Shown here: positions 1 through 9,976 of the stretch, in pieces
How the letters are laid out: every line of letters begins with the position of its first letter
Position numbering within the stretch: position 1 is the stretch's first letter
Source: Deltaproteobacteria bacterium
GTDB taxonomy: Bacteria; Desulfobacterota; Syntrophia; Syntrophales; UBA2210
NCBI GenBank assembly: GCA_026388515.1
Contig: JAPLJO010000032.1
Coordinates: 1-62,009, forward strand
DNA length: 62,009 bases
Direction: 5' to 3'
Made by a program: the position numbers and the translations under genes
Notes under the pieces: generated by a model
Database searches by the model: none
What the model was told of the DNA's origin: nothing
Seen by the model: the letters and a program-made list of their open reading frames with translations, nothing else

Positions 1-33
1 AATGCCCTCTGAAACCTGGTAAAAAAACACGTT

Positions 34-94
34 GGGTAACCCATGTCGTGACACTTTTTACTGTTAAACGCGGGTAACCTATGTGATGACACTT
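34..94 (+). repeat. Two 23-nt direct repeats (34-56 and 72-94, 38-nt period) upstream of the PilZ ORF
   Basis: Read directly: gggtaacccatgtcgtgacactt and gggtaacctatgtgatgacactt are 20/23 identical. Each starts with the near-palindrome GGTAACC. Confidence 0.6.
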
Positions 95-161
95 GGCAGA
101 TATGGAATAAGAATGGGTTTATTAATACCCAAATCGATTCAGGAATCAAAGAAGAAATTAC

Positions 162-530
162 ATGCAATCATTAAAAGGATTAATGCAAAAAAGACGTCCT
201 CATCGCAGAAATGTCAAGCTTCGGGGGTGTTTCCTGTTGAGGGATGAGAAGAGACTTGATAACGATAAAGGCGATGATGCACATGACATTAAGGTAGAGA
301 ATATTTCACAATATGGTATTAGATTCAGATTGCTAAAGCCATTAGAAGTAAAAGTGAATGATACGCTTCAAGTGAAATTTGTATTTGAGAACGAGCGAAG
401 GAGTACGGTCGTTGAAAAGGATATCGTTGTTAAATGGACACAAGGAGATTTTGTGGGTGCTCACTTTGTTCGTCCTATAGATGATTATGAGTCAGAACTC
501 GCTTTCTATTTGTCAGGGGCACGGTTATAA
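162..530 (+). CDS. PilZ-domain protein (putative c-di-GMP receptor), 122 aa
   Basis: ORF track. RRPHR (RxxxR) is followed about 30 aa later by ENISQYG (D/NxSxxG); these are the two PilZ signature motifs. No convincing SD upstream. Confidence 0.7.
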   Translation: MQSLKGLMQKRRPHRRNVKLRGCFLLRDEKRLDNDKGDDAHDIKVENISQYGIRFRLLKPLEVKVNDTLQVKFVFENERRSTVVEKDIVVKWTQGDFVGAHFVRPIDDYESELAFYLSGARL

Positions 531-565
531 ATATATGACCTGTTTACGAAAGAATAATAGGAAAT

Positions 566-627
566 TCGGCGAGTGTTGAGTTTGTTCGTCCCATAATTAT
601 GAGTCACAAATCGCTTTATTATTTGTT
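566..627 (+). pseudogene. Degenerate duplicate of the 3' end of the PilZ ORF
   Basis: 580-627 (gtttgttcgtcccataattatgagtcacaaatcgctttattatttgt) aligns with 464-513 of the intact ORF. The alignment has one 4-nt gap, one 1-nt gap and a few substitutions. Confidence 0.55.
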
Positions 628-640
628 TCTTCCCCAACCC

Positions 641-739
641 TTGACCACACACATCTCACGTAATAAAAAAGGGTCAGCCTTACTCAGCCAACCTTTTATT
701 TTATTCATACAGCCTCTGCCACTTATCTTTCATTGACAA
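641..739 (+). repeat. Intergenic repeat copy 1 (68-nt core 641-708 plus shared tail ending tcattgacaa)
   Basis: The core ttgaccacacac...aaaaaagggtcagcc..cagccaacctttt..ttattcat is shared with copies at 1669 and 2878. The hairpin arms are degraded in this copy, with no compensatory changes. Confidence 0.8.
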
Positions 740-795
740 CTTGAATAAAAAGTGGTTCATAGAAACAGTAGTTGTAGAGGGTTCTACAATTAATA

Positions 796-845
796 AGGAG
801 GGAGTTATGGGTCGTTTCTCGTAATGAGAAACGAGGTCTTTGTAT
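796..845 (+). promoter_or_regulatory. Leader with 5-codon mini-ORF (807-824, MGRFS*) embedded in a perfect 8-bp hairpin (813-833)
   Basis: aaggaggga SD, then atg ggt cgt ttc tcg taa. cgtttctc/gagaaacg form the stem with a gtaat loop, followed by a T-rich stretch. It lies about 40 nt upstream of the YD-lipoprotein start. Confidence 0.3.
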
Positions 846-875
846 TTACAAAATTGAAAAAGGAGACGTAACTGT

Positions 876-1652
876 ATGGATACATCAAAGAGAAAGAAAT
901 ATTTCTTATACTGTCTTATCATTATTACCTCTCTTGTTTTAACAGTCTTTGTTGGATGTGGCGGCGGGGGTGATGGGGATGATAATAGTGTAAGCGAATG
1001 GAGATTAATCGAGCAGGTAAATGATAATGACTATGATGGTACCGTCGACGGCTCTGGGACATATATATATGATGACGCAACCGGCAATAGGATACGGTGC
1101 GATTGGGATAACGGCAATGACGGTTCAATAGATTCTGTTGGTTACTACACGTATGATGCAAGCGGCAACATGACTAAAGAAGAGTGGGACAATGACAACA
1201 ATGGTTCAAAAGATGACGCGTGGCTTTACACGTATGATGCAAGCGGCAACAAGATTAAAGAAGAACGAGACGGCGGTAATGACGGTACGATAAACGCTGT
1301 CAACTACTATACCTATGATGCAAATGGTAATAATATTAAGATGGAATCTGACTACAACAATGACGGAACAATAGAAAACGTTTCCTATTACGAATACAAC
1401 TCAAGCGGGAAAATGACTAAACAGGAAAACGACACGGGGAATGATGGCACCATAGACTACTATGTCAACGTCACCTTTGATGCGGCTGGAAACGCCGTGC
1501 AGTTGGATGGGGTGCAAGCCAGCGACGATACAGTTACCGATATCATATACTATGAATATGATGCGGCGGGGAATAAGATAAGTTATAAACATGACACTGA
1601 CAATGACGGGACAATTAATCGTGCGACCTACTATACGTGGGAAGAGATATAA
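876..1652 (+). CDS. Lipoprotein made of YD-type repeats alternating with DxDxDG-like Ca-binding loops, 258 aa
   Basis: Signal peptide with lipobox (LTVFVGC). About 8 units of N-D-G-T-I-D/N ... Y-Y-T-Y-D-A-S/N-G-N. SD aaaggag lies upstream. Confidence 0.7.
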   Translation: MDTSKRKKYFLYCLIIITSLVLTVFVGCGGGGDGDDNSVSEWRLIEQVNDNDYDGTVDGSGTYIYDDATGNRIRCDWDNGNDGSIDSVGYYTYDASGNMTKEEWDNDNNGSKDDAWLYTYDASGNKIKEERDGGNDGTINAVNYYTYDANGNNIKMESDYNNDGTIENVSYYEYNSSGKMTKQENDTGNDGTIDYYVNVTFDAAGNAVQLDGVQASDDTVTDIIYYEYDAAGNKISYKHDTDNDGTINRATYYTWEEI

Positions 1653-1668
1653 GAAATAAAGAGTATTC

Positions 1669-1765
1669 TTGACCACACACTTATCATAAACAAAAAAGGG
1701 TCAGCTTCATTCAGCTAACCCTTTCATTTTATTCATCACGCCTTTGCCGATTCAATCATTGACAA
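1669..1765 (+). repeat. Intergenic repeat copy 2 (core 1669-1736; hairpin 1694-1724 plus T-run; tail ending tcattgacaa)
   Basis: 60/68 identical to copy 3 by direct count. aaaagggtcagct/agctaaccctttc form the stem, followed by attttatt. It could also act as a terminator for the upstream gene. Confidence 0.85.
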
Positions 1766-1812
1766 TATGCTTTGAAATATGGTTCTCTGAAGCTGATTAA
1801 AGGGGGTCTATT

Positions 1813-2742
1813 ATGTCAGAGGGATGGCAATTAATAGTATCTACCTTAAGAATATTTCAAAGATACCCATTGTTTATAATTCCTATTCTTATTGTCTGGC
1901 TTATCTATGCTGCGATAATTATGTATCTAAAATATTTTTTCCCATGGGATAATTTTGGTTCTGGAGCAGTCTTAGGTATAATTTTTCTTACACTGTTTGT
2001 TTTCTCTTTTATTATTCTGGCTTCTTGTTCCGTAGTGCTTGAGCTAATCCAGCAGCTTGAAACAGGGGGAAAATTGAGTTTAGGTGGTGCGTTTCAAGAA
2101 ACGCTAAGCAAAGATATAACTAAGGTCCTTACTCTTGCTTTTATTTGGGCGATACTTTGGTTTATCTTAACTATCATTGAAGCAATTCTTTCAAAAGAGA
2201 AGGAAGGAAATGAAGAATTTGACGCTGAAAATGTAGCGAAGACGCTGGCAGATTATAGAGAGTTCTCTTTTAGCAGAGCACTTATTGAGGCTTTTGAGAA
2301 AGGCATCAGAATGATTATATTTCTAATACTTCCTGCCGTTGCATGGGAGGATTTAAGTTTTACTGATGCAATAAAAAAGGGGTTGAGAGTTTTGCGAACA
2401 CATTTAGCAGAGTTTGCCAGTGGCTATGCCCTTACTTATGGAGCAGCTATTTTGGTATTTATTCCACCTATAATCATAGCTAAACTTGGTAGCGGCCAGG
2501 ATGGCCATCCTCCATTAATTAATTTTCCTGATTCGGTTTGGGTAGGTGTTATCATATATATAGGTGTTGCGTGGAGTTTTTGTATGTACCTTGAGCAAAT
2601 GTTTACTGCAAATCTATATCTTTGGCATTTAAAATGGGAAAGACAAGTTGAATTAGCTAAAAAACAGGGGCATTCGTTGCCAGACTTTAAGGAAATTAAG
2701 CAACCATCTCTTTTAGACAACATTCCTGATTTAGTAGCTTAA
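1813..2742 (+). CDS. Hypothetical multi-pass membrane protein, 309 aa
   Basis: ORF track. Several long hydrophobic segments; SD aaaggggg upstream. I recognise no family. Confidence 0.6.
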   Translation: MSEGWQLIVSTLRIFQRYPLFIIPILIVWLIYAAIIMYLKYFFPWDNFGSGAVLGIIFLTLFVFSFIILASCSVVLELIQQLETGGKLSLGGAFQETLSKDITKVLTLAFIWAILWFILTIIEAILSKEKEGNEEFDAENVAKTLADYREFSFSRALIEAFEKGIRMIIFLILPAVAWEDLSFTDAIKKGLRVLRTHLAEFASGYALTYGAAILVFIPPIIIAKLGSGQDGHPPLINFPDSVWVGVIIYIGVAWSFCMYLEQMFTANLYLWHLKWERQVELAKKQGHSLPDFKEIKQPSLLDNIPDLVA

Positions 2743-2874
2743 TATATGTATAAACTGTTTCATGAAAATGATGCGATATCTTAGTTAATGAAAAAAGTGG
2801 CTCCGATTCAATCTACCACGCAACTCGTTCAAAAAACTATCTCTATCATATTATTGTCCACCCCCTTGTCCAAA

Positions 2875-2945
2875 TCATTGACCAAACATTAATCAGAAAA
2901 TAAAAAGGGTCAGCTTCATTCAGCTAACCCTTTTGTTTTATTCAT
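2875..2945 (+). repeat. Intergenic repeat copy 3 (core 2878-2945; hairpin 2903-2934), bidirectional terminator abutting tRNA-Leu
   Basis: It starts with tcattgacca, which joins the tail motif of copies 1/2 to the core start. The last T is the complement of the tRNA terminal A. T-runs lie on both strands. Confidence 0.85.
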
Positions 2946-3031
2946 GGTGCCGAAGCCGGGACTTGAACCCGGACGGGTTGTGCCCACTACCCCCTCAAGA
3001 TAGCGTGTCTACCAAATTCCACCACTTCGGC
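2945..3031 (-). tRNA. tRNA-Leu(GAG), 87 nt with long variable arm and encoded CCA
   Basis: Reverse complement GCCGAAGTGGTGGAATTTGGTAGACACGCTATCTTGAGGGGGTAGTGGGCACAACCCGTCCGGGTTCAAGTCCCGGCTTCGGCACCA. Anticodon stem CTATC/GGTAG with loop TTGAGGG. The secG-tRNA-Leu(GAG) synteny matches E. coli secG-leuU. Confidence 0.9.
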
Positions 3032-3092
3032 ATTGCATTCACGATATTTTTTTCTTCCTTTGTTGTCAATAAAAAACAACTCTCAACTCTTG

Positions 3093-3461
3093 TTACTGGC
3101 CTGCCGGGGCCTGGGGTGCAGGTGCCTCAGCCGGAGGAACCGCCGGTACAGGTGCAGGAGCCGTTGGTGCCGGTGTCTGTGGTACTGTCTGTTCAATCGG
3201 CGGCGGTGCCGCTTGGTCCACCACGGAACTGCCCTTGTGGGAGGCGAAGTAGGAGAGCCATAATGAGGTGAGCATAAATATGATGGCGATGACCGTCGTC
3301 ATCTTGTTGAGAAACGTTCCCGGTCCTCCGCTGCCGAATACCGTCTGACTTGATCCCCCGAAGGCGGCCCCCATGTCGGCGCCTTTTCCCGTCTGCAGAA
3401 GCACCACGCAAATGAGAATAATACACATGATCACATGAACAATGGTTACTAAGACTATCAA
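3093..3461 (-). CDS. secG: Preprotein translocase subunit SecG with Pro/Ala-rich C-terminal tail
   Basis: LLQTGKGADMGAAFGGSSQTVFG motif. TTG start overlaps the tpiA stop (TTGA). Confidence 0.85.
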   Translation of the reverse strand: MIVLVTIVHVIMCIILICVVLLQTGKGADMGAAFGGSSQTVFGSGGPGTFLNKMTTVIAIIFMLTSLWLSYFASHKGSSVVDQAAPPPIEQTVPQTPAPTAPAPVPAVPPAEAPAPQAPAGQ

Positions 3462-9265: not shown

Positions 9266-9976
9266 ATGGGCAAGCGGGGCAAGAAATATCTGGAAGTCAG
9301 GGCAAAGGTTGAGCCGGCGAAACGGTACACGCTGCACGAGGCGGTGGAGATTCTGGTGTCCACCGGGCGGGCGAAATTCGATGAAACTATCGATACGGCG
9401 ATACGATTGGGCGTAAATCCCAAGCACGCCGACCAGATGGTGCGGGGCAGCGTGGTGCTTCCCCACGGCCTCGGGAAGAAAGTGCGGGTGCTGGTATTTG
9501 CGAAGGGCGACAAGGAAAAGGAAGCCCAGGAAGCCGGTGCGGATTTTGTGGGGTCCGACGACCTTATTGAAAAGATAAAGGGCGGGTGGCTCGATTTCGA
9601 CAGGGTCGTTGCCACTCCCGATGTGATGGGCAATGTGGGAAAACTGGGAAAGATACTGGGGCCCCGCGGTTTGATGCCGAATCCCAAGGTGGGAACGGTA
9701 ACGTTCGACGTGAAGAACGCCGTGAAAGAACTGAAAGCGGGCAAGGTGGAATTCCGGGTGGAAAAGGCCGGCATCATCCATACGCCGGTTGGAAAGGTCT
9801 CCTTCGGTGTCGATAAACTGACGGATAATATTCTTTCGCTGATCGACGTGATAGTGAAGCTCAAACCTGCATCAAGTAAAGGGACATACCTCAAAACCAT
9901 TTCTCTCTCCACGACCATGGGGCCTGGTATTAAAGTCGATACAGTGGATATTAGAAACTCATTACGTGCAGGATAG
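9266..9976 (+). CDS. rplA: 50S ribosomal protein L1
   Basis: MGKRGKKY... and [10 protein letters not shown]. Internal ATG chosen over the track start at 9197, which overlaps rplK. Confidence 0.95.

Follow-up and report, generated by a model that had tools for sequence, protein, structure and literature searches.

We analyzed a 62-kb window (the whole stretch of 62,009 nucleotides, nt) from an uncultured Syntrophales-like sediment bacterium, in which a block of low guanine-plus-cytosine (GC) content at positions 1-2945 adjoins the 3' end of a tRNA-Leu(GAG) gene. The block contains three plus-strand genes, encoding a PilZ-domain protein, a lipoprotein with YD/RHS repeats and a protein with multiple transmembrane (TM) segments, together with three copies of a repeat whose core is 68 nt long. 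With modest confidence, we interpret the block as the tRNA-proximal end of an accretion array, that is, a row of mini-elements without integrases that accumulated at a tRNA-Leu attachment (att) site and were later gene-converted, deleted or supplied with replacement cargo. The units, hereafter called cassettes, are 0.3-1.2 kb long and usually hold one gene. Because the repeats are homologous to the attL and integrase 3' end of elements that use tRNA-Leu, comparison directly supports an integrase-less array in which an att site was duplicated with each insertion. Feature coordinates are collected in Table 1, and loci and contigs used for comparison carry L numbers.

A repeat search with MAFFT alignment located the core at 641-708, 1669-1736 and 2878-2945, between the three genes, exactly where an earlier note on this DNA had placed it. 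Copies 2 and 3 are identical at 60 of 68 positions, as that note had counted, and share an identical 32-mer spanning a hairpin, for which the chance expectation is zero and which no shuffling of the window reproduced. Copy 1 had been described as more diverged, with two 1-nt indels and a hairpin that had lost its pairing. The divergence and the indels are real (57/69 and 54/69 identical positions against the other copies), but the pairing is not simply lost, since the changes are G.U-compatible on the minus strand.

The core is part of a longer junction. Copies 1 and 2 do continue to the tcattgacaa box described before (TCATTGACAA at 730-739 and 1756-1765), although their homology runs further, to ~760 and ~1787. 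Similarly, the tcattgacca reported ahead of copy 3 is present (TCATTGACCA at 2875-2884), but three boxes spaced 12 nt apart are found there instead of one, and these resemble the P'-arm (arm-type) binding sites of integrases. In the internal copies, a second arm (GCCTyTGCC ... TCATTGACAA) takes the place of the tRNA after the boxes and the hairpin. Of nine complete junction copies in the window and related contigs, eight retain at least one box and the hairpin right after the cargo, the exception being a truncated cassette on contig L086.

The tRNA-proximal copy joins the array to host DNA. ARAGORN places the tRNA-Leu gene so that the last base of core copy 3 is the complement of its terminal A, in line with the earlier reading. 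The order tpiA-secG-tRNA-Leu(GAG) is kept among relatives, the closest TpiA among the representative genomes of GTDB being 61% identical, and the low-GC block, which ends at the complement of the CCA end, interrupts the order tRNA-Leu-hairpin-fbp-fba seen in relatives. GC content is 35-43% up to ~2950 and 48-62% in windows past ~2750, with a mean of 56% for the remainder of the window, which bears out the by-eye impression of an AT-richer block. No tyrosine integrase was detectable across the 62-kb window, consistent with the lack of a recombinase reported before.

We compared the tRNA flank by BLAST with relatives of ~60% TpiA identity, and the match extended 45-80 nt beyond the tRNA. In all of L001-L006, a homologous hairpin (GGGGTTAGC...GCTAACCCC) directly follows the tRNA; core copy 3 is homologous to this flank, and the repeats are copies of the flank downstream of the tRNA. 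L001-L003 are empty sites with the order tRNA-hairpin-fbp-fba (fructose-1,6-bisphosphatase and aldolase), and no further copies of the flank were found downstream in these three loci. Since the hairpin lies directly after tRNA-Leu even at empty sites, the hairpin region corresponds to the tRNA-Leu terminator. L006 and L007, in contrast, carry tyrosine integrases and helix-turn-helix (HTH)/excisionase-like genes abutting the tRNA-Leu 3' end, so that the comparison of related flanks suggested by the earlier note yielded both empty sites and sites occupied by an integrase at the same position.

With the L006 integrase as query, 48 related loci were retrieved from GTDB genomes. tRNAs were sought in 32 of them, and in approximately 20 of these the integrase gene and a tRNA-Leu gene (GAG or CAG) are convergent, with 3-12 nt between them; a few family members are located at tRNA-His or tRNA-Lys, with the boxes still kept. 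Family members have a common layout over their last ~130 nt: GTTGACCAA is followed 33 nt later by GTTGACCAAAACGTTGACCAA (12-nt spacing), and then come a hairpin with GCTAACCCC at its end, a run rich in T and the tRNA. The end of L111, TTGACCAAAACGTTGACCAAATGGGTTTACAGCAATAAAAAAAAGGTCAGCC..GCCAACCCCTTGTTTTATTTA directly followed by the tRNA, is nearly the junction found in the window and in L081. Internal junctions without a tRNA match precisely these integrase 3' ends, with E values of 1e-4 to 3e-6 in 0.73 Mb. Using a 97-position junction profile, which recovered junctions 1 and 2 of the window with E values of 2e-21 and 1.6e-26, we found that integrase-bearing attLs (L111, L126, L093, L006 and others) match from position 1 (E 4e-8 to 1e-3), whereas empty sites match only from approximately position 19, that is, without the boxes. 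The boxes are therefore attributed to the element rather than to the host flank. Junction 1 matches the integrase 3' end and attL of L111. The units are thus bounded by att sites of a known integrase family and contain no integrase of their own, as in cis-mobilizable elements (CIMEs).

Based on these relationships, copy 3 would represent an attL-like site and copies 1 and 2 attP-like internal junctions. Elements would enter beside the tRNA by site-specific recombination, using an integrase of the L006/L111 type encoded elsewhere and acting in trans, with a crossover somewhere from the tRNA 3' end to the hairpin. Every entry would shift older units outward and leave one more att copy, and the junction copies would afterwards undergo gene conversion, deletion and replacement of cargo. 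The idea of a tRNA-flank integration hotspot or cassette array, put forward in the earlier note, is largely upheld by the attL homology and by the variability of the proximal slot described below; the parts that did not hold concern the strand of the terminator and the role of the boxes in crossover.

The crossover had been assigned to TTGAC(C/A)A. However, these boxes are repeated in tandem at 12-nt spacing, are conserved at tRNA-His and tRNA-Lys targets and recur in clusters away from the att site, whereas a crossover sequence would be expected to match its target; a crossover at the boxes is therefore unlikely. In these respects, the TTGACNA boxes resemble arm-type binding sites carried along with the integrase. 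The integrase has ~85 extra N-terminal amino acids ahead of its SAM-like and catalytic domains. This region matched no known family of arm-binding domains, and it would be compatible with an arm-binding domain.

Additional clusters of two to four GTTGACCAA boxes were observed upstream of the integrase gene (int) in L006 (12772-12800), L105 (~9660-9715), L099, L104 and L133. They lie a few hundred nt to 1.5 kb from int, at least those of L006 and L105 being inverted relative to the boxes at the int 3' end, and may represent autoregulatory or synapsis sites. In L093-L129, the integrase open reading frames (ORFs) read through the boxes (codons VDQNVDQ) in the last ~80 nt before the tRNA, and most of them also read through the terminator hairpin to 3-12 nt from the tRNA, while that of L111 stops just before the hairpin. 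The upstream cluster of L006 lies outside the int reading frame, which suggests that the boxes are DNA sites and not only VDQ codons. Other box sets were seen at the same tRNA-Leu flank: TTTGGGGTAC occurs twice, ~11-12 nt apart, beside a different integrase in L007 (2383-2472), TGGTGTA occurs twice at the same spacing in L008 (5247-5340), and GGGTGC occurs three times, similarly spaced, ahead of a PIN-like gene, with no integrase, in L029 (11219-11300). Box sets specific to the integrase type may be general at this flank.

The hairpins of all three copies score as intrinsic terminators on the minus strand only, on which secG and tRNA-Leu are encoded, opposite to the cargo genes. This contradicts the earlier picture of a hairpin that closes each plus-strand gene and acts as a bidirectional terminator beside the tRNA. 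Single-strand folds of the hairpins are also stronger on the minus strand, the substitutions in copies elsewhere are G.U-compatible on that strand like those of copy 1, and wobble and compensatory changes in an alignment of 14 sequences back 13 pairs on the tRNA strand. The element-borne hairpin of the integrase family also appears to supply the terminator of the tRNA, which parallels the way in which tRNA-integrating elements restore the tRNA 3' end.

The orientation of these terminators also bears on another explanation, in which a regulatory or insulator module, composed of a terminator, a promoter or operator and a ribosome-binding site (RBS), was duplicated, and TTGACAA and TTGACCA served as -35 elements or transcription-factor sites. 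TTGACA is indeed the -35 consensus and is used by the tRNA-Leu promoter, a leader/RBS block is shared ahead of unrelated genes, and A- and T-runs flank the hairpins. However, the TTGACAA boxes of the junctions have no -10 partner at 16-18 nt and were not called as promoters, and the terminators are found only on the strand opposite the cargo genes. Moreover, the box and hairpin are homologous to integrase 3' ends and attLs in other genera, which would not be expected of a local promoter module. We consider such a duplication improbable.

To return to the accretion array, its slot nearest the tRNA is hypervariable. The window TpiA belongs to a cluster at ≥90% identity, in which three members (L085, L091 and L092) extend beyond the tRNA. 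Across the window and these three loci, 153-156 of the 156 nt covering the tRNA and its promoter region are identical, the next 84 nt are 80-87% identical, and the sequence is wholly different past the second box, with homology to the window ending at 2861-2866. The proximal slot holds the multi-TM gene in the window, a 328-nt non-coding cassette ("X") in L085, in L091 a paralogue of PilZ with its stop codon directly against a box, and another ORF in L092; L085 ends within the next junction. The earlier note had set against its own proposal the case in which relatives carry the same three genes at this locus, but four strains that are near-identical in the tRNA region hold four different cargos after the proximal core. 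The polymorphism jumps exactly at the tRNA end, and the homology between copy 3 and the internal copies ends at the same base; both observations locate the edge of recombination between the hairpin and the 3' end of the tRNA.

The same cargos were also found in changed contexts. L086 (GCA_026391575.1, JAPLEA010000702.1, 1-1746), which was deposited in a "Bacteroidia" metagenome-assembled genome (MAG) and is probably mis-binned, has the order truncated lipoprotein stub, core, multi-TM gene, core, X and boxes. Its identity to the window is 96% over 1264 aligned nt and reaches 98.6% in the cargo-linked stretch 1756-2853. The multi-TM cassette, proximal in the window, is internal in L086 (1084/1099 identical positions), and X, proximal in L085, recurs in L086 (320/328), so that the same cargos have different neighbours and lie at different distances from the tRNA. 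A metagenome scan with a hairpin-specific pattern returned a single contig, L081, with the order boxes, core, second arm, leader module, hemerythrin and PilZ. PilZ paralogues are cargo in both L081 and L091.

Block 1-2945 lies at a contig end and related contigs break inside repeats, which might suggest an assembly artefact in which low-GC foreign contigs were chimerically joined to the host contig at the tRNA. Yet the tRNA, core and boxes are joined to low-GC cargo in the same way in three independent assemblies of other samples (JGI, ENA), and at 88% identity the cores differ too much to have been collapsed. An artefact is hardly credible in view of these data.

The cargo is foreign to the host, given its GC content of 36-42% against 56% and an 86% nt match to an organism of 35% GC over the ORF only. 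In that organism, L087 577-1560 is 86% identical to window 1821-2772 over the ORF and only ~30-40 nt more, and the gene adjoins an RDD-family gene. The multi-TM family is spread over MAGs of Omnitrophota, Elusimicrobiota and Patescibacteria, and on this sequence evidence the multi-TM gene is horizontally acquired. No junctions were found in L087 or in L088, which carries a homologue with 72% amino acid identity. Because the captured part is limited to the ORF and ~30-40 nt, the donor-like copy in L087 offers clean material on how a cassette is born. Exact look-ups of the window PilZ and multi-TM proteins matched no contigs, the multi-TM protein matched no family in Pfam, NCBIfam or PADLOC, and nothing was found for the three cargo proteins in NCBIfam or PADLOC. 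The three genes are nevertheless present as the earlier note had named them: the PilZ match lies just above its Pfam cutoff, and the lipoprotein has a lipobox and a YD match.

The cargo-linked sequence begins at TCATTGACAA and extends as far as a C-rich tract that precedes the boxes, which agrees with the unit borders proposed before. Within the junctions, we observed mosaics. In junction b of L086, the 25 nt before the loop are those of junction a on the same contig, whereas the loop and proximal arm are those of window copy 3, so that its hairpin joins a type-B arm to a type-A loop. The multi-TM leaders of the window and of L086 differ in a 13-nt patch that is similar to the X leader. Read from the alignments, these mosaics are gene conversion among junction paralogues, which blurs any fixed crossover.

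Several observations weigh against an array built by an integrase acting in trans. The array itself is represented by six short metagenomic contigs that carry the junction. No integrase was found on any array contig, including L085, L091 and L092, and no left end of the array (attR), recombinase or excised circle was observed. A search within 10 kb of 20 integrase loci revealed no attR, and none of the integrase-bearing loci examined contained the second arm GCCTyTGCC..TCATTGACAA. The flanking junctions are 72-79% identical where the cargo is 98-99% identical, and neither junction was co-inherited with the cargo. Boxes, spacer and hairpin are the same in the window and in L091 next to different cargo, which requires an extra step of cargo replacement. 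Homologous recombination or gene conversion could be enough to shuffle cassettes already present.

These points lead to an alternative that we think rather unlikely, in which copy 3 is a relic attL from one old integration, its junction was copied, and cassettes were swapped by homologous or illegitimate recombination only, with no site-specific recombinase. DNA uptake from other strains is a possible route, with the ~100-nt junctions serving as portable homology arms. The mosaic junction interiors and the homogenization of copies within one genome fit this explanation, as do the contrast in identity between cargo and both flanking junctions, the truncated L086 cassette without boxes and the array contigs without an integrase. 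In addition, the PilZ 3' relic at 559-617 shows illegitimate replacement of cargo; it points to the exchange of one cargo inside an older cassette frame. Homologous recombination, however, cannot explain why unrelated foreign genes are framed by the same two arms. The retention of box and hairpin in 8/9 complete junctions argues for selection on att function, and variation concentrated in the proximal slot, with its jump exactly at the tRNA end, is what integration at attB predicts. We therefore retain the accretion array as our preferred interpretation.

To examine whether the repeat occurs more widely, we searched for further copies. The junction profile detected only the three copies in the 62 kb and none in the remaining 59 kb. 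The exact core 32-mer was absent from GTDB representatives, two degenerate junction patterns gave only chance matches in GTDB representatives and none in IMG/VR, and no plasmid similarity was found. All copies elsewhere (L081, L085, L086, L091 and L092) lie in an array context or at the tRNA. A dispersed element of the repetitive extragenic palindromic (REP) or miniature inverted-repeat transposable element (MITE) type, or a generic terminator present here three times by chance, would also be short, hairpin-containing and intergenic, and the 62 kb examined are only part of the genome. Because a profile search of the window and pattern scans of GTDB representatives and IMG/VR gave no additional copies and the copies elsewhere share the array or tRNA setting, we regard this reading, against which the earlier note had measured its proposal, as very improbable.

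We also considered an integron-type array, that is, a cluster of attC sites lacking integron-integrases (CALIN), in which attC sites are recombined as folded single strands by IntI. Small cassettes in the same orientation, with unrelated and mostly unknown functions and no adjacent integrase, would fit such a cluster, as would a hairpin that pairs better on one strand. However, a regular-expression search found no RYYYAAC...GTTRRRY pair (attC R''/R', 40-130 nt apart) in 1-3100 on either strand, and no junction holds both motifs on one strand. DNA folds of the three junctions on both strands gave only the central terminator stem of 8-13 bp, without the long bulged R''/R' and L''/L' pairing of attC. 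The end boxes of the junctions are direct rather than inverted repeats, and the repeat is homologous to the attL of a lambda-type integrase. A CALIN is therefore extremely unlikely.

The array is nevertheless organized like an integron, while not being a member of the integron family. It shares with integrons and CALINs small, mostly single-gene foreign cassettes in one orientation, repeats resembling recombination sites and strain-variable content. It differs in that attC motifs and folds are absent, the site being instead a homologue of a lambda-type attL with tandem arm boxes; the anchor is a tRNA gene rather than attI/intI, and a leader/RBS module accompanies some cassettes. Tentatively, the array may function as an integron-like capture platform, in which single-gene cassettes with ~100-nt double-stranded lambda-type att sites, composed of TTGACCA arm boxes at 12-nt spacing, a core with the terminator hairpin and a TTGACAA arm, would be excised as circles and reinserted at tRNA-Leu by a tyrosine integrase of the L006/L111 type in trans. 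If so, this Syntrophales lineage would gain a rapidly exchangeable accessory pool, one gene at a time, from distant phyla. If units are still mobilized in trans, they would constitute a cassette system functionally parallel to integrons but based on lambda-type att sites, in a poorly studied anaerobic lineage.

In lambda-type attP and attL sites, a core is flanked by arm-type sites that are bound by the N-terminal domain of the integrase (heterobivalent tyrosine integrases). The junctions are similar in having tandem direct repeats about one helical turn apart beside the core and the int 3' end; the three boxes of the tRNA-proximal copy recall the lambda P' arm, and the integrase family has its extra N-terminal region of ~85 residues. 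Unlike lambda att, the core overlaps a transcription terminator, and the N-terminal region resembles no known arm-binding family.

Tandem accretion and CIMEs are also exemplified by elements of the ICESt1/ICESt3 type. Serial integration at tRNAs and integrase-less cis-mobilizable units are thus already known, but as multi-kilobase islands; here the accretion logic appears miniaturized to single genes with uniform junctions of ~100 nt, and four different genes occupy one slot among strains otherwise near-identical at the locus. Among the closest described cases are the genomic islands at ssrA in Dehalococcoides, where integration is serial, attL overlaps the integrase ORF and genes for integration are missing from some units (PMC3146451). 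As in those islands and CIMEs, units stand in a row at the 3' end of one RNA gene with att repeats between them, and some lack an integration module and are proposed to be mobilized by neighbours. The low GC content, strain variability and overlap of the integrase 3' end with attL, seen here in the L006/L111 family, are further similarities with the Dehalococcoides islands. However, the units here are 0.3-1.2 kb rather than several to tens of kb, none was seen to carry an integrase, and the related integrase family is of the tyrosine type, whereas DsiB of Dehalococcoides is a serine-type recombinase (PMC3146451). The repeat also consists of ~100 nt downstream of the tRNA (hairpin and boxes) instead of a 20-nt copy of the RNA gene 3' end.

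Prochlorococcus tycheposons are tyrosine-recombinase elements at tRNA genes, in which newcomers push older elements inward (bioRxiv 10.1101/2020.12.28.424599). Their islands likewise contain scattered att/tRNA repeats, degenerate remnants and strain-variable cargo, but their repeats consist of partial tRNAs, and genes for an integrase and for replication are normally present in the elements (bioRxiv 10.1101/2020.12.28.424599). The array described here has instead a repeat of the tRNA flank with arm boxes, cassettes with cargo only and uniform junctions.

Table 1. Features of the array and the adjoining host DNA, with positions in the window
Feature	Position	Strand	Remarks
PilZ-domain gene, leftmost cargo	162-530	+	Pfam PilZ 22.8 bits against a cutoff of 22.5 bits; upstream boundary off the contig
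PilZ 3'-end relic	559-617	+	Between intact PilZ and junction 1; 76-88% identical to 443-505 (last ~60 nt)
Junction 1, attP-like	641-739	+	TTGACCA box 641-647, spacer, hairpin 672-693, T-run with TTATTCAT ending at 708
Junction 1, second arm	712-739	+	GCCTCTGCC 712-720, TCATTGACAA 730-739
YD/RHS-repeat lipoprotein gene, cargo	876-1652	+	42% GC; RHS/YD repeat match, lipobox
Junction 2, attP-like	1669-1765	+	TTGACCA box 1669-1675, hairpin 1694-1725, TTATTCAT ending at 1736
Junction 2, second arm	1740-1765	+	GCCTTTGCC 1740-1748, TCATTGACAA 1756-1765
Leader/RBS module TGGTTCTCTGAAGCTGATTAAAGGGGG...ATG	1766-1812	+	Shared with L081 and L086 junctions ahead of unrelated genes (L086 1-26, 171-218)
Multi-TM protein gene, cargo	1813-2742	+	36% GC; ~5-6 TM/hydrophobic segments
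3' untranslated stretch of multi-TM cassette, cargo-linked	2743-2853	+	Inside the stretch 98.6% identical with L086
Three tandem boxes TTGTCCA, TTGTCCA, TTGACCA	2854-2884	+	12-nt spacing; starts 2854, 2866, 2878
Core copy 3, tRNA-proximal, attL-like	2878-2945	+	Contains tRNA-Leu terminator hairpin 2903-2934 (minus strand)
tRNA-Leu(GAG)	2945-3031	-	Array anchor; ARAGORN; Rfam tRNA 47.6 bits
Sigma-70-like promoter of tRNA-Leu, TTGACA-17-TATCGT	3041-3069	-	Host DNA; identical in L091 and L092
secG	3093-3461	-	Pfam SecG 82.8 bits; edge of conserved host order tpiA-secG-tRNA-Leu, synteny in relatives

Some smaller features of the junctions were also noted. CGGCArAGGCnnnA in the internal junctions weakly resembles the acceptor end of the tRNA, matching CGGCTTCGGCACCA at 8/14 positions by eye, and this similarity may reflect either the decay of a core or coincidence. 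TTGTCCAC was considered as a DnaA box, but the match to the integrase family was preferred. TGGTTC..GC was considered as a sigma-54 site and rejected, since its spacing is wrong by one and the motif is not kept from one junction to the next. Derivation of the leader/RBS module from the integrase 5' region was likewise rejected, as that region is coding sequence of the HTH gene.

The X cassette (L085 2003-2330, L086 1360-1688) is 328 nt long and 97.6% identical between the two contigs. No ORF in it exceeds 16 codons, and its strong hairpin, GGCCACGGCGG..CCGCCGTGGCC, leads into a T-run. Neither the junction nor X matched Rfam, weak GibS hits lying far below threshold, and X may encode a small RNA or represent a cassette in decay. 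At its start (1-93), L086 carries the leader/RBS module and a 19-codon ORF resembling a lipoprotein signal, fused to the core without boxes, which constitutes the truncated cassette mentioned above.

Within the cargo region of the window, the YD-lipoprotein gene contains four in-frame tandem repeats of 81 nt (27 codons) at 1146-1433, which are 64-89% identical. In its leader (797-834), a strong RBS and a 5-codon ORF (MGRFS*) overlap a terminator-like hairpin of the plus strand at 812-834, an arrangement that looks like an attenuator. Just upstream of PilZ, a 23-nt direct repeat, GGGTAACCyATGTsrTGACACTT, occurs at 34-56 and 72-94; it is not a junction copy, and the pair looks like operator sites. 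Finally, on a 7154-nt contig of JGI 3300075153 with P0130, a PilZ homologue (76% identical) ends a run of ~12 small, mostly same-strand genes, whose families include DUF3795, LiaF-TM, ArsR-type HTH, SHOCT, DUF6567 and ankyrin. Judging from its gene content, this contig may be a long version of the same array.

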